Below the pieces are notes generated by a model, which worked only from the letters and a program-made list of their open reading frames with translations, was not told where the DNA came from and ran no database searches. 64,000 bases of DNA, taken from positions 44,143 through 108,142 of the forward strand of contig JADFDM010000011.1 of NCBI GenBank assembly GCA_018262795.1, in the 5' to 3' direction. The position numbers were made by a program, and so were the translations under genes. This stretch comes from Sphingobacteriales bacterium (lineage in GTDB: Bacteria > Bacteroidota > Bacteroidia > Chitinophagales > LD1). This document shows positions 5,993 to 57,386 of the stretch, in pieces. How positions within the stretch are numbered: position 1 is the stretch's first letter; each line of letters opens with the position of its first letter.

Positions 5993-7525
5993 ATGAGAGA
6001 AGCCGTTCGTTTTACCTTGATAGCTTTATTAATCGTAGTCATACTGACGGGCACTTTTAGGTGGCCTTTATACGGCTCCATTGTCATAGGAATATTTTTA
6101 TTCACTATGGGGCTATATGACATATTCCAAAAGGAGCGTTCCATACTTCGCAACTTCCCGCTGCTGGGTCACATGCGCTACTTCCTTGAACTCCTCCGCC
6201 CCGAATTGCATCAGTATTTTGTAGAATCCAATACCGATGGCAAACCCATTGACCGCAATCATCGCACCTATATTTATGCACGAGCCAAATTAGAGAGAGA
6301 CACCCACCCCTTTGGCACAGAACTGGAAGTGAACGAAGAAAATTTTATGTGGATGCAACATAGCATTTATCCTGTTGCTGTGCTACCTCAAGCTCCACGG
6401 GTAATGATGGGTGGTTCACACTGCAAGCGGCCCTATTCCGCCAGTCTTTTCAATATTTCAGCCATGAGTTATGGCTCTCTTAGCAAAAACGCTATAATGG
6501 CGCTAAACTTAGGTGCCCAAGCCGGAAATTTTTATCACAATACCGGGGAGGGTGGTATTTCTGAATATCACTTGCAGGGAGGTGATTTAGTATTTGAAAT
6601 AGGAACCGGCTACTTTGGTTGCCGCACTCATGACGGACATTTTTCTCCGGAAGAGTTTAGCAAGAAAGCTGCTTTACCGGAAGTGAAAATGATAGAACTA
6701 AAAATATCGCAGGGCGCTAAACCCGGTCACGGTGGGGTGTTGCCTGCCGCCAAAAACAATAAAGAGATTGCACACATCCGAGGGGTGAAACCACATACAA
6801 CTATCCTTTCACCTCCGGGTCACAGCACCTTTAGCGATCCGGCAGGATTGCTTCGGTTTATACAACAGTTGCGCGAACTCTCGGGCGGCAAGCCTATCGG
6901 TTTTAAACTATCTATAGGCAGCAAGAAGGAGTTCATTGAAATATGCGAGCAAATGGTAGCCACCGGCATAAAGCCCGATTTTATTACTGTAGATGGTGCC
7001 GAAGGCGGAACCGGTGCTGCTCCGATTGATTTCTCCAATTACGTGGGAATGCCTTGGGAGAATGCTCTCATTTTTGTAGTGGACACCTTGCACTATTATA
7101 ACTTGAAGAAAGATATCCGCATCGTTACGGCCACCAAAATATTTACCGCCTTCGATATTTTCAAAGCGCTTTGTATCGGTGCCGATATCTGCAACTCTGC
7201 GCGGGGAATGATGCTGGCTCTCGGTTGCATTCAAGCCTTGATTTGCGACACCAACCGATGCCCCACCGGTGTTACCTCAAATAATCCGAGATTGATGCGA
7301 GGTTTGGCGGTCTCTGATAAATGGCAACGGGTGAAAAACTATCAGCAAAAAACATTAGCCGACTTTACAGAGTTATTTGCTGCTGCGGGGTGTACGGAAC
7401 TCAGCCAACTCAACCGTCACCTAATCCACAAAAAAGTAAACGGTAAGATATGCTCCTATCAGGAATTGTATCCTTTGCCTGCCACTCTCGCAAGCGGTAT
7501 CTCAGTGTCGCCCACACACATTTAA
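5993..7525 (+). CDS. FMN-binding glutamate synthase family protein (GltB domain-2-like), membrane-anchored
   Basis: 510 aa with N-terminal TM helices. Motifs NISAMSYGSLS, NTGEGG, LKISQGAKPGHGGVLP and DFITVDGAEGGTGAAP are present. Confidence 0.85.
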   Translation: MREAVRFTLIALLIVVILTGTFRWPLYGSIVIGIFLFTMGLYDIFQKERSILRNFPLLGHMRYFLELLRPELHQYFVESNTDGKPIDRNHRTYIYARAKLERDTHPFGTELEVNEENFMWMQHSIYPVAVLPQAPRVMMGGSHCKRPYSASLFNISAMSYGSLSKNAIMALNLGAQAGNFYHNTGEGGISEYHLQGGDLVFEIGTGYFGCRTHDGHFSPEEFSKKAALPEVKMIELKISQGAKPGHGGVLPAAKNNKEIAHIRGVKPHTTILSPPGHSTFSDPAGLLRFIQQLRELSGGKPIGFKLSIGSKKEFIEICEQMVATGIKPDFITVDGAEGGTGAAPIDFSNYVGMPWENALIFVVDTLHYYNLKKDIRIVTATKIFTAFDIFKALCIGADICNSARGMMLALGCIQALICDTNRCPTGVTSNNPRLMRGLAVSDKWQRVKNYQQKTLADFTELFAAAGCTELSQLNRHLIHKKVNGKICSYQELYPLPATLASGISVSPTHI

Positions 7526-7679
7526 TTTTACGGCAAAGATTGATTTTCATAATCCGTTTGTAACGGCACAGAAGACATATCATTAAGTTGCATCAAAATG
7601 GTTCTATCTATCCATTTTCATCCATTCGCTTTAACTATTTTCGTTCGTTATTGATTGAACTTACTAAAAGAATCAGCAA

Positions 7680-8135
7680 ATGATTACTCTACAAGAAGGA
7701 GATAAAGCTCCGGCATTTAAAACGAAAGATCAGGATGGGAAAACGGTATCGCTTAAAGACTATTTGGGCAAAAGGGTAATTCTTTATTTCTATCCGCAAG
7801 ATGATACCCCCACCTGCACTCAAGAAGCCTGCAACTTTCGCGATAACTTCGCCTTATTGAAAAAGCAGGGTTATACCATTCTGGGAGTGAGTCCCGATTC
7901 CCCCGAATCGCACACCAAGTTCATTCAAAAGTTTAAACTGCCTTTCACGTTGTTAGCCGATGAAGAGAAGAAAATCATTAATGCCTATGGCGTATGGGGT
8001 CCCAAAAAGTTGTACGGCAGAGAATACGAAGGCATTTACCGAAGCACTTTTGTAATAGATGAAAAGGGAAAGATTGAGAAGATTGTTCGCAGAGTGCTGT
8101 CGAAAAAAGCAACGGAACAAGTAATGAAATCTTAA
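7680..8135 (+). CDS. bcp: thioredoxin-dependent thiol peroxidase (peroxiredoxin Bcp)
   Basis: 151 aa with the AhpC/TSA fold motif FYPQDDTPTCTQEAC. Confidence 0.9.
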   Translation: MITLQEGDKAPAFKTKDQDGKTVSLKDYLGKRVILYFYPQDDTPTCTQEACNFRDNFALLKKQGYTILGVSPDSPESHTKFIQKFKLPFTLLADEEKKIINAYGVWGPKKLYGREYEGIYRSTFVIDEKGKIEKIVRRVLSKKATEQVMKS

Positions 8136-8191
8136 CAGCCAAAAATCTTGTCGCAACAACAATTTTTTATTTCTTTGAGAAAACTAAGCGA

Positions 8192-9067
8192 ATGAAAAAG
8201 AACCATTTACTACTCACCGCATTGATTGTCCTTGTCTTTATTTTGGTGGATACTACTAAAGTAAACTCTCACGTTAATTATCCTGATCCGGGGAATTGTG
8301 GCGATCCGGTCACCAATGTAACTTGCGCTCAAAGCGGATGCCATGCTTCTCCTTCACAGGTGGCTACCCCTAATGATTTTACTTTAACGATAGGTACCGG
8401 CACTCCTACTACTCCACTGTCAAGCAGTTTTAAATACGCTCCCAATACAACTTACAACATTGCTTTGCTTTTAAATGCTTTTCTGAGTAATCCCTATTAC
8501 GGATTTCAAATTACTGCGTTAGATGCCAGCAATACTAAAGCAGGTTCTTTTACAGTTTCTAATGCGGGTACCACAAAAATTACCACGGCAGGCCCCTACG
8601 AATACATGGGGCATTTGAATGCTAACTCTACTCACAACTGGGTTTTCAAGTGGACTTCACCAGCCGCCTCTACCGGCCCTGTTTCTTTTTATTTCGCATT
8701 TAATGAAGCCAGTGTAGCCTCTCCTCCACCCACAGTACCTGTAGGAACCATTTACACAGGTAATGTAACTATTCAGCCTAATTCTACCGGCATCAATGAT
8801 TTGTCTGAAACAATTTCAGGTCTTCAGGTGTTTCCCAATCCTGTTACCAATGAGTTAGGGCTTTCACTCACTATGAAACAAAATGCTACCGTTCAAGCAG
8901 GATTATACAATCTGAATGGTGAATTCGTGAATGAATTGATGAATCGCTCGGTAAATGAAGGCACTGCTGATTTTACTTTTAATACCGGCAACCTTGCTTC
9001 CGGCATTTATCTGATAAAAGTAGCCGTAGGTGATCAATTCATATCGAAAAAGATATTTCGCCAATAA
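8192..9067 (+). CDS. secreted Reeler-like domain protein with CX4CH motif and T9SS C-terminal sorting domain
   Basis: 291 aa with a signal peptide. It contains CAQSGCH, a GFQITALD...FKWTSP... Reeler-like pattern, and the C-terminal VFPNPVTNELGLSL...GIYLIKV typical of a T9SS type-A CTD. Confidence 0.7.
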   Translation: MKKNHLLLTALIVLVFILVDTTKVNSHVNYPDPGNCGDPVTNVTCAQSGCHASPSQVATPNDFTLTIGTGTPTTPLSSSFKYAPNTTYNIALLLNAFLSNPYYGFQITALDASNTKAGSFTVSNAGTTKITTAGPYEYMGHLNANSTHNWVFKWTSPAASTGPVSFYFAFNEASVASPPPTVPVGTIYTGNVTIQPNSTGINDLSETISGLQVFPNPVTNELGLSLTMKQNATVQAGLYNLNGEFVNELMNRSVNEGTADFTFNTGNLASGIYLIKVAVGDQFISKKIFRQ

Positions 9068-9448
9068 ATGAAAAAATTGTTGTGGCCGGTGGTGATGGTT
9101 TCTCTGATTGTACTTTACAGTTCTTGTGCAAAAGATGTAGCGGAAAAGCCTTCGGCTATTGATTGCTCTACGATTGATCCATCCATCAATACCTATACTC
9201 TAAACATCAAAAAAATAATTGACGGCAACTGCGCCACGGTCAATTGTCACGATGCTGTTTTTCATACGGCCTCCGGCATTTCATTGGCTACTTATGCCGA
9301 AGTGAAAGCTGAATTTGAAAAAGGAACAGTGATGGGTTCGGTGACACATTCCCCCGGCTTTATTGCTATGCCACAGAATTCACCAAAACTGGCAGACAGT
9401 TTGATTACTTATATGCAGTGTTGGGCAGATAATAATTACCCCCAATAG
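9068..9448 (+). CDS. small lipoprotein with CX4CH motif
   Basis: 126 aa with lipobox LYSSC. The motif GNCATVNCHD matches the CAxxxCH pattern of the upstream gene. Its start abuts the upstream stop (9067/9068). Confidence 0.65.
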   Translation: MKKLLWPVVMVSLIVLYSSCAKDVAEKPSAIDCSTIDPSINTYTLNIKKIIDGNCATVNCHDAVFHTASGISLATYAEVKAEFEKGTVMGSVTHSPGFIAMPQNSPKLADSLITYMQCWADNNYPQ

Positions 9449-9469
9449 CGTTCAAGTAATAAAGCCGTT

Positions 9470-10042
9470 ATGAAGAATCTGTTTGTGTTGTTTCTGCTCA
9501 CTGGTATTCCGTTTTTGCACGGCAAGGCTCAAGTTGACAAATATGCCAACACCTATTCCTGCACAGGAGGAAGTATTCACTTTTTCTCCAGTACTCCTTT
9601 AGAGAATATTGATGCCACCTCGAAAAAAGCGGTGTGTGTGCTGAATACCGAAACTAAAAAAGTGTATGCCAAAGTGCAGATGAGTAGTTTTGTTTTTACG
9701 AAGCGTTTGATGCAGGAGCATTTTAATGAAAACTACATGGAGAGCGATAAGTTTCCTTTCGGAGTATTAGACGCGGTCATTACAAATGATTTAGACTTTA
9801 CAAAGGATGGTACTTATGACGTTACTTTGAAAGGAACCTTTGAAGTGCATGGCGTAAAACAGAATAGGGAAATTCCTGGCAAGCTCACTATTACAAACGG
9901 GCAACCCTTTAGAGCTACCGCAGCGTTTACCGTAAAATTAGCCGACCACAACATTAAGATACCGCAGGCAGTCATACTGAAGATTGCAGAAGATACTAAA
10001 GTGGATGTTGACTTTTTGTTTGAAAAGTACAGTAAGAATTAA
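9470..10042 (+). CDS. YceI family (polyisoprenoid-binding) protein
   Basis: 190 aa with a signal peptide and a YceI-like beta-barrel pattern (GSIHFFSSTPLENIDATSKK..., FEVHGVKQ...). Confidence 0.75.
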   Translation: MKNLFVLFLLTGIPFLHGKAQVDKYANTYSCTGGSIHFFSSTPLENIDATSKKAVCVLNTETKKVYAKVQMSSFVFTKRLMQEHFNENYMESDKFPFGVLDAVITNDLDFTKDGTYDVTLKGTFEVHGVKQNREIPGKLTITNGQPFRATAAFTVKLADHNIKIPQAVILKIAEDTKVDVDFLFEKYSKN

Positions 10043-10064
10043 ATTCTCTTACACTCCTCCATAT

Positions 10065-10105
10065 AAATTCAAAGGGCGATTAATTAAAATCGCCCTTTGA
10101 ATTTT
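10065..10105 (+). terminator. perfect 16-bp hairpin (terminator or attenuator) between the yceI-like and beta-barrel genes
   Basis: AAATTCAAAGGGCGAT (10065-10080), loop taattaaa, then ATCGCCCTTTGAATTT (10089-10104) followed by T. Confidence 0.6.
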
Positions 10106-10138
10106 AAGCCAAACCGGAATACTATTTATTATTACAGC

Positions 10139-11149
10139 ATGAAACTATTTAGCACTCTACTCATGGCAATTCTTTTTTCGAGCCGCATCTCAGCGCAGGC
10201 AGATGTGCTGGACGATTTGATGAAAGAGGAAAAACCCAAAAAGGAATTTGTCGCCTACACCTTTAAAGGAACACGAATCATCAGCGGCCATTCTATTGAA
10301 ACGGTAAAAAGACAAGCACTTGATTTTCGCATCAGCCACCGCTTTGGCGATATGGCGGCTACCAACAACGATCATATCCATTCCTTGTTTGGCTTTGACC
10401 AAGCAGCCGATATTTTATTTGCCCTCGAATATGGTGTTACCGATGATTTAACCGTGGGCATGGGTCGTGCTAAGGGAGCAGGGCCGGTGCACCAGTTATG
10501 GAATGTGAACATAAAATACCGTGCGTTGAAGCAGACGAAAGATTTTAAATCTCCCTTCACCATTACCATGTTTGCCAATGCTTCTATTACCAGTATGCAG
10601 AACTCGAAAGACCCTACAGCGTTGGATTATTTCCCTAAAAATAGCTACAAGGGTTTTGCCGACCGCATGTCGTACACCTTGCAAGCGCTCGTGGCTTGCA
10701 AAATCACCTCTTGGCTTTCGCTGCAATTATCGCCCACCTTTGTGTGGAGAAACAGAGTGCCTTACAACGATAAGAACGGCATGTTTTTTCTGGGCTTTTC
10801 GGGCAGGGCTAAGTTTAACCAGCGTACCGGATTTATCTTTGAATATTTCCTCCCCATCATGAAGCCGGGAATAGGTGGCAGAGAATACTTCCCGATGGTG
10901 CGAGGTATGAAAAACGCAGCTTATTATCCCTCTGTTAACCTGGGCTTTGAATTTGAAACAGGCGGACACATTTTTGATGTGAACTTTACCAACTCGCGCG
11001 GCATGTTAGAGCAGGATTTTCTACCCTACAATACCGCGAACTGGCTGCAAGGTGCTTTCCGCTTGGGCTTTACCATTTCGAGAACTTTCCAGCTCAACAA
11101 AAAAGGCGGGAAGTACTGGAAGAAGGGGAGTGTAGAAGACGGGAAGTAA
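10139..11149 (+). CDS. outer-membrane beta-barrel protein (DUF5777-like)
   Basis: The track start at 10097 lies inside the hairpin. The ATG at 10139 gives MKLFSTLLMAILFSSRISAQ (signal), 336 aa. The alternating beta-strand pattern ends in ...GFTISRTF. The family assignment is from memory of a YceI-neighbour family. Confidence 0.6.
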   Translation: MKLFSTLLMAILFSSRISAQADVLDDLMKEEKPKKEFVAYTFKGTRIISGHSIETVKRQALDFRISHRFGDMAATNNDHIHSLFGFDQAADILFALEYGVTDDLTVGMGRAKGAGPVHQLWNVNIKYRALKQTKDFKSPFTITMFANASITSMQNSKDPTALDYFPKNSYKGFADRMSYTLQALVACKITSWLSLQLSPTFVWRNRVPYNDKNGMFFLGFSGRAKFNQRTGFIFEYFLPIMKPGIGGREYFPMVRGMKNAAYYPSVNLGFEFETGGHIFDVNFTNSRGMLEQDFLPYNTANWLQGAFRLGFTISRTFQLNKKGGKYWKKGSVEDGK

Positions 11150-48031: not shown

Positions 48032-48075
48032 ACTTTTCATTCAATTCAGCGGAGAATTTGAAAGAAATTAGCGAG

Positions 48076-48145
48076 AACCTGTAAGCTGCCTGTGGGAGAA
48101 CTTAATCTGAAAGACTGTTTGGCCAGCAGGCAGACAAATCACAAT
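48076..48145 (-). repeat. degenerate CRISPR repeat relic carrying two insertions
   Basis: The + strand reads AACCTGT-[aagctgc]-CTGTGggAGAACTtAATCTGAAAG-[actgtttggccagcaggcaga]-CAAATCACAAt. This matches the repeat segments aacctgt / ctgtgaaagaactgaatctgaaag / caaatcacaac. Confidence 0.75.
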
Positions 48146-48299
48146 CTTAGAAAGGATGATATTTTCCCGGTTTGCGTTGTGAATGAACTTTAACGCAATA
48201 GATGGAGACAAGACTACTCTTGTGGGATAGCGCAAATTCCTTCAATGCAGAGTGCAAGCTTTTGTACAAAATGTGAAACCGAAAATATGAACGCTTGAA

Positions 48300-48350
48300 A
48301 AAGAAAAAAGGGGTGCAAAAGCAGGTTCTGCATCCCCTTTAATCATTTTT
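48300..48350. terminator. bidirectional hairpin terminator at the trailer end of the CRISPR array
   Basis: GGGGTGCA(48310-48317)...TGCAtCCCC(48329-48337) is flanked by an A-rich run on the left, which reads as a T-run on the minus strand, and by TTTaatcaTTTTTTTT on the right. Confidence 0.6.
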
Positions 48351-48405
48351 TTTCTTTCAAAAAACAGGCGAAGAACAAGTGCTGGTAAGGGTTTCAGCAA
48401 AATCA

Positions 48406-51400
48406 CTTGTAACCTGTCTGTGAAAGAACTGAATCTGAAAGCAAATCACAACCCTACTATCGCGCTAAAGTTTCCATAAGTCCTTGTAACCTGTCTGTGA
48501 AAGAACTGAATCTGAAAGCAAATCACAACCACCGGATATAAGCACGTTACAACCTGCCCCTTGTAACCTGTCTGTGAAAGAACTGAATCTGAAAGCAAAT
48601 CACAACGTCTATCACTTGTTGAATATCTGTGTAAAACTTGTAACCTGTCTGTGAAAGAACTGAATCTGAAAGCAAATCACAACCGTTCAACTATCGGGTC
48701 TCCAACTCCTGTGCTTGTAACCTGTCTGTGAAAGAACTGAATCTGAAAGCAAATCACAACAAAAGGTAAGTCGTTAACTGCGGAAGAGCCTTGTAACCTG
48801 TCTGTGAAAGAACTGAATCTGAAAGCAAATCACAACCAGAACGCAATAAGGCAGTTAGCAGGTTTGCTTGTAACCTGTCTGTGAAAGAACTGAATCTGAA
48901 AGCAAATCACAACACAATGTGTTAGGCACGTATAACGCTTCTGCTTGTAACCTGTCTGTGAAAGAACTGAATCTGAAAGCAAATCACAACATTGCTGAAT
49001 TACAATCACAATGCAAATATCTTGTAACCTGTCTGTGAAAGAACTGAATCTGAAAGCAAATCACAACATAAAACAAAAAGCAATGGCAAAGATTATCCTT
49101 GTAACCTGTCTGTGAAAGAACTGAATCTGAAAGCAAATCACAACTTTATACCTAAAGTTGTTTCGCTTGCCGTACTTGTAACCTGTCTGTGAAAGAACTG
49201 AATCTGAAAGCAAATCACAACAACAACTTGCTTTTGCAAATCATATCTTGAACTTGTAACCTGTCTGTGAAAGAACTGAATCTGAAAGCAAATCACAACT
49301 GGTTCTTTGCGTTTGAAAGTATAATGATGCTTGTAACCTGTCTGTGAAAGAACTGAATCTGAAAGCAAATCACAACCTATAACATTTTTTTGATAAAATT
49401 AAATCACTTGTAACCTGTCTGTGAAAGAACTGAATCTGAAAGCAAATCACAACCACCTGATAACAGGAAGCAAACACCACTCACTTGTAACCTGTCTGTG
49501 AAAGAACTGAATCTGAAAGCAAATCACAACCGGTGCAACGCTTCACCGAATTTTCAAAAACTTGTAACCTGTCTGTGAAAGAACTGAATCTGAAAGCAAA
49601 TCACAACCTTTGCAATGCGGGTCAACATCCCTGTCAGCTTGTAACCTGTCTGTGAAAGAACTGAATCTGAAAGCAAATCACAACCTTAAAGAGCAGGTTG
49701 TAACAGGCATGGGGCTTGTAACCTGTCTGTGAAAGAACTGAATCTGAAAGCAAATCACAACCATTACAATGCGGGTCAACATCCCTGTCAGCTTGTAACC
49801 TGTCTGTGAAAGAACTGAATCTGAAAGCAAATCACAACTAGCAATCTCAAAGGCTACACTCAGGTGGTCTTGTAACCTGTCTGTGAAAGAACTGAATCTG
49901 AAAGCAAATCACAACAGACATGAAGGCATAGAACAAGTAAGACACTTGTAACCTGTCTGTGAAAGAACTGAATCTGAAAGCAAATCACAACTATGGCAAT
50001 AAGTATGGCCGCATAACCCCTCTTGTAACCTGTCTGTGAAAGAACTGAATCTGAAAGCAAATCACAACCCCTCTTTTCATCTTACTTTCGCGCACGTCCT
50101 TGTAACCTGTCTGTGAAAGAACTGAATCTGAAAGCAAATCACAACCAGACCCGCGAGGTTCTGCCGGAGGCGGAGCTTGTAACCTGTCTGTGAAAGAACT
50201 GAATCTGAAAGCAAATCACAACCTACTTTCGCTGCTTGTAGTGTTTGCTTTTCTTGTAACCTGTCTGTGAAAGAACTGAATCTGAAAGCAAATCACAACA
50301 AACAAAAACTATTTCCATTCACTGGCAACCTTGTAACCTGTCTGTGAAAGAACTGAATCTGAAAGCAAATCACAACTAACATCCTCTGATGGAACAATAA
50401 ACATTGCTTGTAACCTGTCTGTGAAAGAACTGAATCTGAAAGCAAATCACAACGACAATCACTGGGCACACTTCTAAGAATGGCTTGTAACCTGTCTGTG
50501 AAAGAACTGAATCTGAAAGCAAATCACAACCTGTGGCTGGACGTTAATAATTGAACTTTTCTTGTAACCTGTCTGTGAAAGAACTGAATCTGAAAGCAAA
50601 TCACAACTTATAGCAAAAGTTACAGGTATGGGAACTTCTTGTAACCTGTCTGTGAAAGAACTGAATCTGAAAGCAAATCACAACCTATCCCAAGTTTCTC
50701 TCATTTCTTGTTTACTTGTAACCTGTCTGTGAAAGAACTGAATCTGAAAGCAAATCACAACTTGCTTAACTTTTTCATGGTGTTTAGTTTTCTTGTAACC
50801 TGTCTGTGAAAGAACTGAATCTGAAAGCAAATCACAACGTTAGTTCTGCTTTCACTTAACGTTATAGTCTTGTAACCTGTCTGTGAAAGAACTGAATCTG
50901 AAAGCAAATCACAACTTCCCCGTTGTAGTTGTCTTTGAAATCAACTTGTAACCTGTCTGTGAAAGAACTGAATCTGAAAGCAAATCACAACTTTTCAGCA
51001 ATCCATCTTTTTGTAAATGTTCTTGTAACCTGTCTGTGAAAGAACTGAATCTGAAAGCAAATCACAACTGTTGATTATCTGCTAATCCATACGTCATACT
51101 TGTAACCTGTCTGTGAAAGAACTGAATCTGAAAGCAAATCACAACATAACACTGTCATCCCAATAAGCAATCCTACTTGTAACCTGTCTGTGAAAGAACT
51201 GAATCTGAAAGCAAATCACAACATTGTTAGATAAGAACATAATAGATTGTGGCTTGTAACCTGTCTGTGAAAGAACTGAATCTGAAAGCAAATCACAACC
51301 AATCTCCCGTATTGCCCCTAAAAACACTGCTTGTAACCTGTCTGTGAAAGAACTGAATCTGAAAGCAAATCACAACGAATACAAAGCGGTATATCTTTTC

Positions 51401-51683
51401 GCTGCACTTGTAACCTGTCTGTGAAAGAACTGAATCTGAAAGCAAATCACAACACAGGGTGGCCTGTGGAGTCACTGCACGCTCTTGTAACCTGTCTGTG
51501 AAAGAACTGAATCTGAAAGCAAATCACAACATATCTTGCGGTATTACTCATTGCAATATTCTTGTAACCTGTCTGTGAAAGAACTGAATCTGAAAGCAAA
51601 TCACAACTAAGTTCAACATGCCATATGTGACAGTCACTTGTAACCTGTCTGTGAAAGAACTGAATCTGAAAGCAAATCACAAC
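48406..51683 (-). CRISPR. CRISPR array with 43 identical 47-nt repeats and 42 spacers
   Basis: The + strand repeat is cttgtaacctgtctgtgaaagaactgaatctgaaagcaaatcacaac. On the minus strand it reads GTTGTGATTTGCTTTCAGATTCAGTTCTTTCACAGACAGGTTACAAG. I located every repeat start by hand (48406, 48483, 48560 ... 51561, 51637). Spacers are 37 of 30 nt, 4 of 29 nt and 1 of 31 nt. Minus-strand transcription is inferred from tracrRNA complementarity. Confidence 0.97.
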
Positions 51684-51783
51684 TTCACTAAATCCGCTAC
51701 CTGAATGAATTAAAATGCGAAAGAACTCAAAGTATGCTTGCCCAACTGATAGGAAAATCTCCGTATAAACCGATTCGCCCTCA

Positions 51784-52137
<354 letters not shown>

Positions 52138-52219: not shown

Positions 52220-53158
52220 TTATCGGTACCGCTTACTCCTTTCCATTACTTCGAACTTAGGAAACAGTATTTTTTTCACTTCGCCTTCAAAGCATTTGGC
52301 AAGTGTAGCGGTGCTTCGCTGCGCAGCAACAAATAGAGGGCTTTTATCTTTCTCTAACAGCACATCTACCGAAGCCACATTCAGCAATCGGTTTTTGTTT
52401 TCGGTGTTCAATTCGCGGTAGTCTTTTTTCTCTTTTATTAAGCTGCGAACGATGTAATCCACGTAAGGGCGATACGGCTCCATGATATCATCGGCAAGGC
52501 AGTAAGCATTATATCTGTTGCGGTGAAAAATGCCGAGGGTGGGCAGCAGCCCCGACCCCACTAAACTGCGAGCGACAATAGCGCGGATAATAGCATAACC
52601 ATAGTTCAGTAGATGATTCGGAGGCGAGCCATCACGCCTGCGGTAAAAATCCATTTCGGGTGGAAATAAGTTCCTCCAGTAGTAAGCTGCAGCCGTGGCT
52701 TCGGCATTGCCTTTATCGCCACTGCGAATATCCGCTGCTAAAGAAAGCAGCGGGCCGGTATCGGTTTCAAAATATTCCAACACAGCCGCCTGATTCTGAA
52801 TTTTGGCAGCTATGGTCTGCGCCCACAGTTGCTTTTTCATCGGCTCGGTAGCTTCTATCTGTGCTTTGAAGCGTTCGCTTTGTATGCTGTGCCCGTCTAA
52901 GTTGAGCAGCAAGCCCACGGGATGGTGGGTGGCATTGCAAGTGATCACGGCCACATTATTTTCAAGAAGTTTATGGAGAGTGGTTTGGGTGATGGTGATT
53001 TGTTGATGATCTAATACCACCACTCCTACATCTTCTATTGGCACCGTTTTATCTTCCGCATCCTCCATACCGGCAATACCTTTATAGCTCACCACCAATT
53101 GCTCTTGACGAGTTTTCAGATAGGCCGGATTGCCGAAATAAAGGGTGCGCTTGATCAT
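52220..53158 (-). CDS. cas1: CRISPR-associated endonuclease Cas1 (type II)
   Basis: 312 aa beginning MIKRTLYFGNPAYLKTRQEQLVV..., with NHLLNYGYAIIRAIVARSL and GIFHRNRYNAYCLADDIMEPYRP. It starts 6 nt after the cas9 stop. Confidence 0.93.
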   Translation of the reverse strand: MIKRTLYFGNPAYLKTRQEQLVVSYKGIAGMEDAEDKTVPIEDVGVVVLDHQQITITQTTLHKLLENNVAVITCNATHHPVGLLLNLDGHSIQSERFKAQIEATEPMKKQLWAQTIAAKIQNQAAVLEYFETDTGPLLSLAADIRSGDKGNAEATAAAYYWRNLFPPEMDFYRRRDGSPPNHLLNYGYAIIRAIVARSLVGSGLLPTLGIFHRNRYNAYCLADDIMEPYRPYVDYIVRSLIKEKKDYRELNTENKNRLLNVASVDVLLEKDKSPLFVAAQRSTATLAKCFEGEVKKILFPKFEVMERSKRYR

Positions 53159-53164
53159 AAAAGG

Positions 53165-56100
53165 TCATTTAAAACATTCCTCCCCTTTGGCAACTATCTC
53201 ACCTAAGATATTAAGTCGAACCTTGATAACATTTAGCTTGTCATGCGACAATTTAAAAGAACTCAATTTAATACACTTAGAAATTTCTTTAGCACTGGGA
53301 TAAGATTGGGCGTTTGAACTTTTCTTCGTTTTCAAAAGCGAAACATAACCGTATTCATATTCTTTGCCGTTTGTGGTAACAATACTTGAGGAAAGTCCCT
53401 TTACAATATATAATCGCTCTTTCAATTGGGTTACATTTCCCCAGTTGTAATTTTCTTTTTCCTTTTCATCAATATAAAGAGCAACTACATCCCCCTGTTT
53501 GAGCCACTTACAATCTTTATTAATTCCTATTTCATTTTTTTCATCATGATACAATTTACCCCCCTCATAATATAAACCACTATTAGCATTCTTTTTACTT
53601 ACAGCCTTATAGAATGAAATAATCTCAAAACCCCGATTACTTCGCTTGTAGTTTCCCATTTTGTCAAAATTATTTTTATTGTATAGAGCCATTAGAGCAT
53701 TGTTATCATTTTCTACCCATCTATTGTTAAAGATCAGATTATCATCTTCATCTTTAGCGACAAGTTGTATAAGCGATCTATCGGTATTATATCGCTGTCT
53801 TATGGATTTTACAATTGGTAGGGGCTTTCCCTTCTTTTTACTGGTGTGCTTTTCAGGTGTATTAGGGCTTGTTCTATAAAATGGATTCTTTTCCATTTCA
53901 CTTTTAAGAAACGCATTATTACCTAAGGCTTCAAGTCTTTGTCGAGTTATTGAGTAAAGTTCATCATCTGGTATATAATGCCATTTTAATTGCCCTTTTA
54001 CTTTATAGTCAAGATCGTTTGAGTATTTAAATAAAACTTTATCCTTTCTTTGATCATCAAACAATTCAACCCTGCGAACAGTTGTTCCATTTCTTTTACT
54101 ATAAAATGCGTCTTTGTGTAATTTACCTTGTGGAGCATAGGTTTCATGTACTATCACCCCATCCTTGGTTTTAATTCTGTTCTTACGTTTTTTAATCAAT
54201 GTTTGCTTCTCGCTGTGGCTCACTAAAATTGCCGCAATACTTTCTTTTACCTGTTGGTAATCAAAACTTCTTTCAATTTTATCTCTGTTTCTTAAATGCT
54301 TTTGCTCTCGGATAGCGTTGTAAGTACTAAGGTCTTTAATAATTATAGGTGAACAGCAAGCCGTGATAACTGCATCAATTGCGTGATGCCTATGGTCACT
54401 ACGATCTTTCTTACCGCTCTTATCTCTAAACTGTTTGAATTTTTCAAGTTCAAAAAACCAATACAATAAATCATTTCGTGTTTGCTTAATGTATTCGTTC
54501 AGGCTTTTATCCTCTGAAATATTTTTCCAATCAATCTTAAAGTCAGTGGTGTTATACTTCGATTCATACCATTGCTGGTAATCTTTTTTTATCCTGTAGT
54601 AGTTGATATAAATTTCATCCATATTAATGTCAGTTTCTTCCTCGTAACGTATCTTATCCAATAAATTAGAAAGTGTCCAATCATAATTTCTTAGCTCGGA
54701 TGTAGCTGAACCATTGGTAAATTGAACATTTTTGCACACCTCCTGCATTTTAGTTCGGGTGTATTTGGCTATGTATGATGTGTTGCTAATTTGGCTGCTC
54801 GAAAAACCTTCACTTACTGTTTCAGCTAAGAATAATTCCTTTTTCCCATCACCAAAATGGTGATACTTGCTTTTCATTCTTGCTTTAAATGATTGTACCG
54901 CATCTTCTCCTTTTCTACTTAAATATTCGATTGGCGTCATACTGCCCTTTTCAGCGTTAGTAATACTATAAGTTAGGGTTTTGTTATTAAACGAATCATC
55001 CAAGCTTCTACTTAATGGCATGATGTGTTCAATTTCAACATCTGAGCCAAAGCAATCAGTAAGGTTTATTACTGCTCCTGTATATGGGCACCGTCTTCCA
55101 CACTCCAACCAAAGATGGTGCTTAAGTCTATCTTGCTCTTTTGTGATTTTCGAGAAGTTTTTAAACTCAGCTATGAAGAACTCATCTTCTTCGTTCATGT
55201 TCATTTGCAGCCATAACTCATACTTTTTCACTATGGGACTGTTTTTGTAGATGTCATATTTAAAGCCAAGTTTTTCTTTATTGCCCGTTAAATAATCTGC
55301 GTATTGCTGTCTTAACTTGTCTTTATCTGCATTCTTTCTTCTTTCAGCTTCTCTCTCTTGTCTTGGTTTACGCAACTGTCTGGTAGATTCAATCCTTATT
55401 TCAAATGTATTTCTGTCTATTTCGGTTTCATATTTTTTGAGAATTGCATTTACCAGTTTAATGGTCTTCGATAAAGCTCGCTCAACTACAGGATTTCGTA
55501 ACTCCTGATACGCCAGCTGTGATATTTTCTCTTTAATTTGAACTTTCGCACCTACAGTGCCGTCTTCATTTACATAACCTCTCTTTGTTGCAACTAATGC
55601 ATCATGTTCGTTCAACCCATCACGCATAAATGGAAGAATTGCATTTAAAACCTTTGTAGAATAAGACCCATAATCAGACACTAACCCTTTAGCAAGTAAA
55701 CTCTTTACTTGCTCTTCAGTGAAATTCCATTTTGTTGGTTCAGCTAAAACGCACATCAGCCAGTCTTGCTCTTTAAATAAACCATCTTTCGCCATATATA
55801 AATGATGCCATAGGTCAGATAATTGGCTGGTTATTCTCCTTGATTGCATTTGGAACTCACCTTTCTTAATCTTCTGAAATAAATCAGGACCTAAAGCCTC
55901 CTTAAATCCTGCGTAAGTTACATTCCCAATAATTTTAGTTTCATTCTTTTCATCGCTTACTACGTCTTCATCGTTTTTATCAATGAAAAATTCAAATTCC
56001 GCTTCATTTTTTATAAATCCGTTATCCTTTAAAATTTTCCCAAAGTATGGCTTACCCTCCTCTTTAACCTTTTTCGTTCCTTTAAAATATACCTCCATAT

Positions 56101-57277
56101 TATCCATTAGTTCGCTGGCTAAAACTGAGAGCCATTTTTTTTCTAATGATTTTCTGAAAATATCCTGTTCCGGTGCTGAGTACTTTATTTGATGAAGCTT
56201 TTGCCAAATACGGAACTCTTGAAAAAGCGGATGACTCTTAGGGCAGGCTTTCTTTGCTTTCCTTTTCCAAATCCGTTTCTCCTTTACTGTAACATTATCT
56301 CCCTCGACTATTTCAACCTTATCCACATCAAATTGCCCTTTTTCAAATTGACAGTTTGAAACATACTTCTTCTGGGATTTTAAAGGCCTTTGATAATAAA
56401 TGCAATATTCGCGAATATGCCAGTAGTTTGTTTTCTTAAATTCTTTTAGAGCAGCAATTCGTTCCATATACGGTTTCTTCATTATCGCATCGAACTCGGC
56501 TTTACTTCCTGTTAGCTTGTCTGGGAAATATTGTTTTTGTGCAGCCCAAATCATATCAAACTCTTTCAAGTACATGTCCCGTAGAGTATATCTGCCATGA
56601 TGTCGTCTTATACCATTGCTATTGAAGAGTATTATATCGTTTTCATCTCCGTTGTTATAAGCCCTTTCATCAATCGGTTCATTATAGTTATGCCATTTGT
56701 CCTTCTCATAAAGCACTTTTGCCTTTTCGTGCATTTTGAAAAAATACTCCCCAATAGTTTTCGCACCAGATTTATCAATAAGGTGTTGTAGCTTTTCGTA
56801 TTCTGCTTTTACTACTCCTGTTTCTTTAGCGTTCTCCTGAGGATTTTTAGCGTTGCTTTTAAAGCCTCGATATTTATTCAACAACATAAAAATCCTACCA
56901 ATTTCTTCTGCTGGTATTCTATTTTCCGGCTTAATGGCATCCGCTCTCAGTTTGTATAATTCATAAGATTGTCCTTTGCCCTTCGCTTTATGATATAACT
57001 CGTATTTAGGCAGCATGCCTAAATTTTTCAAGGCAATTTTTAAATTTTCTCTTCTTTGCTTAAAGCGATACCTCATTCTGCTTGCACCACGGTAAGCCCT
57101 CCTTTGTTCATTTTTGGTTTTTTCTTTATTGCTTACGTCATCCACAATCGTTCCTATCGGGAAAATGTGAACTCCTGTTTTAATAATCTCAATTCTGCCG
57201 TCCTTAAATTCTTTAAGCAAGCACCAGCCCAAAGAATTTGTTCCAATATCTAGCCCGATTACATGTTTAAATTCCAT
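53165..57277 (-). CDS. cas9: type II-C CRISPR-associated endonuclease Cas9
   Basis: 1370 aa. RuvC-I is GLDIGTNSLGW (D10) and the bridge helix is RRAYRGASRMRYRFKQRR (59-76). RuvC-II is FEIRIESTR (625-633) and HNH is DVEIEHIMPLSRSLDDSFNNKTL (H751, N765). RuvC-III is DHRHHAIDAV (961-970). No csn2 or cas4 gene is in the locus. Confidence 0.95.
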   Translation of the reverse strand: MEFKHVIGLDIGTNSLGWCLLKEFKDGRIEIIKTGVHIFPIGTIVDDVSNKEKTKNEQRRAYRGASRMRYRFKQRRENLKIALKNLGMLPKYELYHKAKGKGQSYELYKLRADAIKPENRIPAEEIGRIFMLLNKYRGFKSNAKNPQENAKETGVVKAEYEKLQHLIDKSGAKTIGEYFFKMHEKAKVLYEKDKWHNYNEPIDERAYNNGDENDIILFNSNGIRRHHGRYTLRDMYLKEFDMIWAAQKQYFPDKLTGSKAEFDAIMKKPYMERIAALKEFKKTNYWHIREYCIYYQRPLKSQKKYVSNCQFEKGQFDVDKVEIVEGDNVTVKEKRIWKRKAKKACPKSHPLFQEFRIWQKLHQIKYSAPEQDIFRKSLEKKWLSVLASELMDNMEVYFKGTKKVKEEGKPYFGKILKDNGFIKNEAEFEFFIDKNDEDVVSDEKNETKIIGNVTYAGFKEALGPDLFQKIKKGEFQMQSRRITSQLSDLWHHLYMAKDGLFKEQDWLMCVLAEPTKWNFTEEQVKSLLAKGLVSDYGSYSTKVLNAILPFMRDGLNEHDALVATKRGYVNEDGTVGAKVQIKEKISQLAYQELRNPVVERALSKTIKLVNAILKKYETEIDRNTFEIRIESTRQLRKPRQEREAERRKNADKDKLRQQYADYLTGNKEKLGFKYDIYKNSPIVKKYELWLQMNMNEEDEFFIAEFKNFSKITKEQDRLKHHLWLECGRRCPYTGAVINLTDCFGSDVEIEHIMPLSRSLDDSFNNKTLTYSITNAEKGSMTPIEYLSRKGEDAVQSFKARMKSKYHHFGDGKKELFLAETVSEGFSSSQISNTSYIAKYTRTKMQEVCKNVQFTNGSATSELRNYDWTLSNLLDKIRYEEETDINMDEIYINYYRIKKDYQQWYESKYNTTDFKIDWKNISEDKSLNEYIKQTRNDLLYWFFELEKFKQFRDKSGKKDRSDHRHHAIDAVITACCSPIIIKDLSTYNAIREQKHLRNRDKIERSFDYQQVKESIAAILVSHSEKQTLIKKRKNRIKTKDGVIVHETYAPQGKLHKDAFYSKRNGTTVRRVELFDDQRKDKVLFKYSNDLDYKVKGQLKWHYIPDDELYSITRQRLEALGNNAFLKSEMEKNPFYRTSPNTPEKHTSKKKGKPLPIVKSIRQRYNTDRSLIQLVAKDEDDNLIFNNRWVENDNNALMALYNKNNFDKMGNYKRSNRGFEIISFYKAVSKKNANSGLYYEGGKLYHDEKNEIGINKDCKWLKQGDVVALYIDEKEKENYNWGNVTQLKERLYIVKGLSSSIVTTNGKEYEYGYVSLLKTKKSSNAQSYPSAKEISKCIKLSSFKLSHDKLNVIKVRLNILGEIVAKGEECFK

Positions 57278-57307
57278 TTGCGTTTGTTTTTTGTTTTATT
57301 AATATTG
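57277..57307 (+). promoter_or_regulatory. candidate Bacteroidota-type promoter for the tracrRNA
   Basis: A -33-like TTTG lies at 57277-57280, overlapping the cas9 ATG complement at 57275-57277. A -7-like TAATATTG lies at 57300-57307, one mismatch to TAnnTTTG, with a 19-nt spacer. The predicted start near 57311 coincides with the start of the anti-repeat. Confidence 0.4.
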
Positions 57308-57310
57308 CTA

Positions 57311-57386
57311 TTGAAAGCTTATCACAACAAGGATTATTCCTTAGGCGATTAAGCCCTGCCCTTGGTTCGTCCCGGGGCTTTTTTTT
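57311..57386 (+). ncRNA. tracrRNA candidate (anti-repeat, nexus-like hairpin, terminator)
   Basis: TTGAAAGCTTATCACAAC (57311-57328) pairs with repeat nt 1-18 (GUUGUGAUUUGCUUUCAG), forming 16 pairs around a 2-nt U/U internal mismatch. It is followed by AAGGA-ttat-TCCTT (57329-57342) and the GC stem AGCCC...GGGCT plus T8 (57352-57386). Confidence 0.75.

Follow-up and report, generated by a model that had tools for sequence, protein, structure and literature searches.

We analyzed a 64,000-nucleotide (nt) stretch of contig JADFDM010000011.1 from a Sphingobacteriales bacterium, hereafter the window, and found that its CRISPR array, which belongs to a locus classed by gene content as type II-C, holds two spacers that are identical except at two positions near one end. 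That end is predicted to be the seed, the part of the spacer next to the protospacer-adjacent motif (PAM). We consider it moderately probable that the pair arose by escape-filtered re-acquisition, in which a variant protospacer beyond the reach of the older spacer was captured independently. The array was parsed by exact match of the 47-nt repeat across the window, with spacers counted from the leader, and the features concerned are as follows, sense being that of the CRISPR RNA (crRNA).

48406-51683, minus strand: CRISPR array, whose 47-nt repeat occurs in 43 identical copies alternating with 42 spacers (29-31 nt); crRNA-sense repeat GTTGTGATTTGCTTTCAGATTCAGTTCTTTCACAGACAGGTTACAAG.
49608-49637, minus strand: spacer 16, the newer near-duplicate according to leader polarity; + strand CTTTGCAATGCGGGTCAACATCCCTGTCAG, crRNA sense CTGACAGGGATGTTGACCCGCATTGCAAAG.
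49685-49714, minus strand: spacer 17, between spacers 16 and 18 and similar to neither.
49762-49791, minus strand: spacer 18, the older near-duplicate; + strand CATTACAATGCGGGTCAACATCCCTGTCAG, crRNA sense CTGACAGGGATGTTGACCCGCATTGTAATG.

Spacers 16 and 18 are both 30 nt long and, aligned at offset 0 with the same orientation, share the nucleotide at 28 of 30 positions. The two mismatches fall at + strand position 2 (T/A) and + strand position 5 (G/A). A 25-mer common to both spacers occurs at just these two sites within the window, where shuffles give an expectation of 0. Over all spacer pairs and both orientations, the chance of a match of at least 28/30 is ~6e-12, and the runner-up among the 861 spacer pairs reaches 19/28, which is chance level. 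The neighboring spacers 15, 17 and 19 are all unrelated, there is no tandem or block structure, and the array junctions are all regular 77-nt units. The near-identity, the differences at + positions 2 and 5 and the single unrelated spacer between the copies had been noted in a preliminary description of this DNA, and array parsing agrees on every point. Both spacers would thus derive from the same protospacer, taken in the same register and orientation.

In all Cas9 systems, a spacer meets both the repeat handle and the PAM at its 3′ end. In order to assign the strand of the crRNAs, we relied on the following predicted element.

About 57300-57386, plus strand: predicted trans-activating crRNA (tracrRNA), upstream of cas9 and divergent from it, in which the anti-repeat ATTGCTATTGAAAGCTTATCACAAC is followed by a nexus-like hairpin, by another hairpin and by a terminator that has a T8 run.

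The nexus-like short hairpin is AAGGATTATTCCTT, while the last hairpin is G+C-rich and carries the T8 run. With the first ~25 nt of the minus-sense repeat (GUUGUGAUUUGCUUUCAG), the anti-repeat forms a duplex of -24.1 kcal/mol, and the repeat end paired in this way is the GUUGUGAU end. In relatives of the locus, an anti-repeat sits at the corresponding place upstream of cas9 and points the same way; family-wide, the conserved part of the repeat is its GTTGTGATTTGCTTTC end. If the element were read on the opposite strand, the anti-repeat would come last, at its 3′ end, a terminator would be missing, and the element would not be complementary to the part of the repeat located after the spacer. 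Because the order and pairing of the tracrRNA are canonical, the layout is the same in relatives and the GTTGTGATTTGCTTTC end is the conserved one, the crRNAs are predicted to be minus-strand. The PAM-proximal end of each spacer would then be its low-coordinate end, and the two differences would be the 2nd and 5th nt from it. Minus-strand transcription, with + positions 2 and 5 in the PAM-proximal seed, had been proposed in the preliminary description and is supported by the tracrRNA and the conserved repeat end. An Rfam search of the locus, tracrRNA candidate included, matched no family.

The order in which the two copies entered the array depends on the position of the leader, for which two further elements are needed.

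48342-48405, plus strand: putative acquisition leader, adjoining the crRNA-sense 3′ end of the terminal repeat and homologous to the leaders after cas2 in relatives.
48300-48355, no strand assigned: G+C-rich hairpin between an A-run and a T-run, resembling a bidirectional terminator; in relatives the same element lies between cas2 and the leader.

The comparison set consisted of 80 related loci from genome contigs, nearly all of them metagenome-assembled genomes (MAGs), and of five contigs from the closest lineage, whose Cas1 is 91% identical. In all relatives with a detectable array except L015, where it sits upstream of cas9, the array comes after cas2 and its crRNA strand is antisense to the cas genes. 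From cas2 to the first repeat, these relatives show the terminator hairpin, a T-run and a conserved stretch of ~55 nt that ends ...AGTAAGGCTTTCAGCnAAA and adjoins the crRNA-sense 3′ end of the repeat. Degenerate terminal repeats (at least two mismatches) are found at the leader-distal end of 13 relatives' arrays and at the leader end of none. In the window, it is the low-coordinate flank of the array that aligns with the post-cas2 flank of L001-L003, L084 and L086. A profile built from the leaders of 45 relatives, with the repeats left out, was run with nhmmer on the whole 64-kb window and gave a single significant match, at 48342-48403 on the plus strand and in register with the first repeat (E = 0.0012); the flank beside cas2 did not match this profile.

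In published type II-C arrays, transcription runs toward the leader, where the array is variable; the repeats have their GTTGT end on the leader-distal side, and the spacers face the leader with their PAM end (PMC8092290). The tracrRNA and the leader homology point to transcription toward the leader in the window array as well, the direction expected of a type II-C array read from promoters inside its repeats. A sigma-70 promoter scan is not informative for Bacteroidota, and published work on Flavobacterium psychrophilum Cas9 contains no orientation data. Because new spacers enter at the leader end, 48405, spacer 16 is predicted to be newer than spacer 18, and the order of acquisition would be spacer 18, then spacer 17, then spacer 16. 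The copy at 49762 had earlier been taken as the newer one on account of its being closer to cas2; with the leader at 48342-48405, far from cas2, this order is reversed and the 49608 copy becomes the newer.

Compared with nearly all relatives (L001-L003, L084-L087 and about 50 other loci), the closest lineage (91% Cas1 identity) included, the array, leader and terminator of the window (48300-51783) are inverted with respect to cas9-cas1-cas2. The inversion makes the array co-directional with the cas operon and places the leader at the end far from cas2. A comparison of the window with its relatives at this inversion revealed no inverted-repeat scar, breakpoint homology or traceable breakpoint. 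In two relatives with 79% Cas1 identity (L002, 2577-2760; L003, 2563-2746), cas2, the terminator and the leader are followed by one truncated degenerate repeat and then by a glycosyltransferase gene, and this lineage seems to have lost its array and kept the leader.

We then asked where near-duplicate spacers differ in the family at large. For the family test, 53 arrays with 1281 spacers were all placed so that the leader was on the left, and within-array pairs with at most four mismatches at offset 0 were counted, leaving out pairs inside block duplications. Besides the window pair, 10 such pairs were found in relatives. Counted from the leader-facing, PAM-proximal end, 15 of their 22 mismatches lie in positions 1-10, five in 11-20 and two in 21-30 (binomial p = 9e-4; pair-level permutation p = 3e-4 one-sided, 5e-4 two-sided), and the mean mismatch position falls within the PAM-proximal half in 9/10 pairs. 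The members of these pairs are 1, 1, 2, 3, 3, 4, 5, 6, 12 and 78 index positions apart. In the window pair, both differences are within the five PAM-proximal nt, for which P = 0.023 at that end under uniform placement. The family-wide seed bias is drawn from just 10-11 pairs.

There are 11 in-register near-duplicates and several exact or 1-nt-shifted repeats among 26,259 within-array pairs, versus none among ~800,000 cross-array pairs (a figure from hand arithmetic, the pairs among 1281 spacers minus the 26,259 within arrays). No near-identical spacers were found between arrays of different genomes among the 53 family arrays. One array holds three separate near-duplicate pairs (L079, a Cyclobacteriaceae MAG; array 6729-10694, 52 repeats), and another, that of L068, holds two. 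Where 29- and 30-nt copies of one protospacer occur together (L014, spacers 7/11; L032, 10/13; L079, 31/34), they align at the leader-facing, PAM-proximal end. Spacer length seems to be measured from the PAM side, with the slack at the far end.

A bias toward the seed is unexpected under neutral divergence of the target or mutation within the array, and is expected if a second copy is kept only once the first fails. PAM-distal variants give no reason for a new spacer because the older spacer still cuts them. Escape from Cas9 through seed and PAM mutations is textbook knowledge, and a failure of the older spacer on the newer allele is what the general seed sensitivity of Cas9 would lead one to expect. 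We infer that the differences defeated the older spacer, and that the second copy owes its retention to this. The data suggest that the newer variant, which may have arisen under pressure from spacer 18 or have existed beforehand, was functionally out of the reach of spacer 18, and escape followed by re-acquisition, as put forward in the preliminary description, is a plausible history of the pair. In such a history, Cas1-Cas2, probably with Cas9 choosing the PAM, would have captured one PAM-flanked 30-nt protospacer on two occasions, each time from a different sequence variant of a single invader lineage. Each spacer would have entered at the leader, at 48405, spacer 18 before spacer 17 and spacer 16 last. 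Given differences at the 2nd and 5th nt from the PAM, poor binding or cutting of the newer variant would be expected of Cas9 loaded with the older spacer. An invader bearing the variant would pass the existing immunity, and cells capturing the variant protospacer would be selected.

Several observations weigh against escape and re-acquisition. A single seed mutation normally suffices for escape, and the window pair has two. Taken alone, the window pair gives a positional signal of only p ~0.02-0.05. Its differences lie 3 nt from each other, and in + frame 3, which gives LQCGSTSLS for both spacers, each of them is synonymous (NCT/NCA and TTG/TTA). The spacing of mismatches within the relatives' pairs is likewise enriched for multiples of 3 (10/17, p = 0.02). 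Because the window differences are synonymous and the spacing shows this enrichment, the targets are probably coding, and the variation resembles the ordinary divergence of a coding gene at wobble positions. Such variation fits standing variation between related phages as well as it fits escape limited to silent sites.

Additionally, the protospacer of neither allele was found in the viral, metagenome, genome, GenBank phage or plasmid collections. The exact 25-nt core shared by the two spacers had no match in viral, metagenome or genome contigs, and patterns leaving every third base free had none either, in three codon phases for viral contigs and one phase for metagenome contigs. BLAST of the whole array returned nothing from GenBank phages and only other CRISPR arrays from plasmids. 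The PAM-distal 22-mers of spacers 17 and 1 were without a match, as were the shared cores of the near-duplicate pairs of L079 and L015, and the window spacers matched neither the remainder of the window nor any of the related loci.

The strongest competing explanation is that two co-circulating phage or plasmid relatives, or paralogous copies within one element, were sampled independently at one acquisition hot spot, with no role for immunity and with the PAM-near position of the differences a coincidence. The preliminary description had named independent sampling of two related phages as its alternative. The codon-like spacing described above, both in the window pair and in the relatives, is what such sampling would give. 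Recapture of an exact protospacer also occurs in relatives, in some cases with 1-nt shifts in length or register (L032, spacers 10/13; L059, spacers 4/5) that set these cases apart from simple duplications. However, placement that is uniform or confined to wobble positions fails to predict clustering at the PAM-proximal end, which is seen in the 10 pairs (p ~3e-4 to 9e-4) and in the window pair (p = 0.023). A PAM-distal variant would still be cut by the first spacer and a second copy would bring no advantage; the bias seen is the one that such an immune filter predicts. We regard independent sampling as rather unlikely, yet as the alternative to be taken most seriously.

Duplication of a spacer-repeat unit within the array, by replication slippage or recombination between repeats, followed by two point mutations, is improbable. 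Duplication is the commonest source of repeated spacers, accounting for 86% of duplicate candidates in a large survey (PMC11472070), which counts against re-acquisition, and block duplications of ~5-10 consecutive spacers do exist in the relatives L061 and L067. In those blocks, however, 13/15 copy pairs are identical, and the two that differ (L061, spacers 9/19 and 13/25) show an indel or a divergent, over-long end, with no in-register substitutions. The window copies do not lie in tandem and, with unrelated spacers at 15, 17 and 19, they belong to no duplicated block. Moreover, the 43 repeats are free of substitutions (0 in 1974 nt) while the spacer has 2 in 30 nt (Fisher p = 2e-4), and mutation within the array is therefore disfavored; nor does drift predict differences biased toward the seed.

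A more active form of re-acquisition can also be imagined, in which Cas9 carrying the old crRNA stalls on a seed-mismatched, PAM-flanked target and hands that protospacer to Cas1-Cas2, a targeted re-vaccination in type II-C. The idea is raised by the within-array excess of pairs, by their closeness within arrays and by the concentration of their mismatches in the seed. If true, it would put in-register re-capture of the same site far above random sampling. We give it very little credence at present. The weakest explanation, a chimeric assembly in which two strains' metagenomic arrays with one allele each were fused, might be entertained since the sequence comes from one 143-kb NCBI contig for which no sibling is recorded, almost all of the relatives compared are MAGs and the closest-lineage contigs break at the first repeat, but it is the least probable of all, because allelic variants would more naturally produce an assembly bubble than a series with a unique spacer between them, the junctions are all regular 77-nt units, and like pairs occur in assemblies of different projects, including the isolate genome L057 (78 spacers apart, four mismatches).

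The re-acquisition that we favor has a precedent in another CRISPR type. In Legionella pneumophila, paired spacers target the element LME-1; the newer of them matches perfectly, and the older has mismatches in the seed or PAM (Rao et al. 2016; PMC5071653). The authors read these pairs as escape followed by renewed acquisition. As in the window, two spacers of the same array cover one target region. In contrast, the Legionella system is type I-C and uses primed adaptation, its spacers overlap out of register, its target is known and its interference was measured, whereas the window pair belongs to type II-C, has an identical register and is known here from the array sequence alone. The survey cited above, made with SpacerPlacer, classed most within-array repeated spacers as duplications, not re-acquisitions (PMC11472070). 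The likeness lies in an almost identical spacer occurring twice in one array; unlike those duplications, the window copies are non-block, non-tandem and non-identical, with differences confined to the seed.

The locus itself resembles the type II-C systems of the Bacteroidota member Flavobacterium columnare (PMC8092290) and of Neisseria and Campylobacter (PMC3737331). It has cas9-cas1-cas2 only, together with a tracrRNA; its crRNA-sense repeat starts with GTTGT; its leader abuts the 3′ end of the repeat, with crRNAs predicted to run to the variable end; and its spacers are turned toward the leader with their PAM end. It differs in that the array is co-directional with cas9-cas1-cas2, while the array runs opposite to the cas operon in the ~50 relatives and in the published Neisseria and Campylobacter loci (PMC3737331). 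An existing spacer can also influence new uptake from the same invader in type II-A, where acquisition primed by Cas9 cleavage needs a perfectly matching spacer and enriches uptake around the cut site, as summarized in PMC8092290. II-A priming does not involve re-capture of the same protospacer from a mismatched variant, and it is not known to operate in type II-C.

The seed-differing pair is a new example, in type II-C, of an already known trace of the arms race between host and invader, and it comes from an uncultured member of the Chitinophagales. Near-duplicates that differ in the seed only are among the few traces in a single genome that record evasion by the invader and then re-immunization of the host. 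The case also illustrates that the rule "closest to cas2 is newest" misleads, both because the newest spacers of type II-C arrays are at the downstream end of the transcript and because the window array is flipped. Less ordinary, though peripheral to the pair, are the flipped array itself and the seed bias of near-duplicate pairs across the family. The seed bias is a cheap statistic that requires no target; if upheld in a larger census, it could help to tell how an array is oriented and on which side the PAM lies, and to gauge how often immunity to the same site is renewed.

The remaining parts of the locus were identified by matches to NCBIfam profiles.

51784-52122, minus strand: cas2 (TIGR01573, E = 1.7e-20).
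52220-53158, minus strand: cas1 of the type II (NMENI) kind (TIGR03639, E = 2.3e-86).
53165-57277, minus strand: cas9, 1370 amino acids (TIGR01865, E = 4.5e-124, nearly the whole profile covered).

Between 51784 and 57277, the cas strand holds three open reading frames of at least 80 amino acids, with no csn2 (as in II-A), no cas4 (as in II-B) and no fourth cas gene. By this gene content the locus is type II-C, in a host within the Bacteroidota. Cas1 relatives with 55-68% identity are nearly all from Chitinophagales or Chitinophagaceae. An identical Cas1 is recorded once, on the 143-kb contig, and look-ups of the exact Cas2 and Cas1 sequences found no sibling strains. The contigs of the closest lineage end inside the first repeat.

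Within the array, spacer 2 (48530-48559) and spacer 17 have the 12-mer GTTACAACCTGC in common, in opposite orientations. By our estimate ~0.04 such chance matches are expected over all spacer pairs, and either coincidence or related targets could account for it.

The locus is flanked by gldA and by a gene for a TPR protein, and beside gldA, ~250 nt past the leader, lies one more repeat-like element.

48066-48154, plus strand: degenerate full-length copy of the repeat, interrupted by 21 inserted nt that fold into a hairpin of their own.

We had considered this element as the tracrRNA and dropped it once the canonical tracrRNA upstream of cas9 was found. It is predicted to pair with the crRNA repeat at -41.9 kcal/mol, which is stronger than the -24.1 kcal/mol of the canonical anti-repeat. 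The element could be the relic of a repeat or encode a second anti-repeat RNA, and it may not be part of the CRISPR locus.

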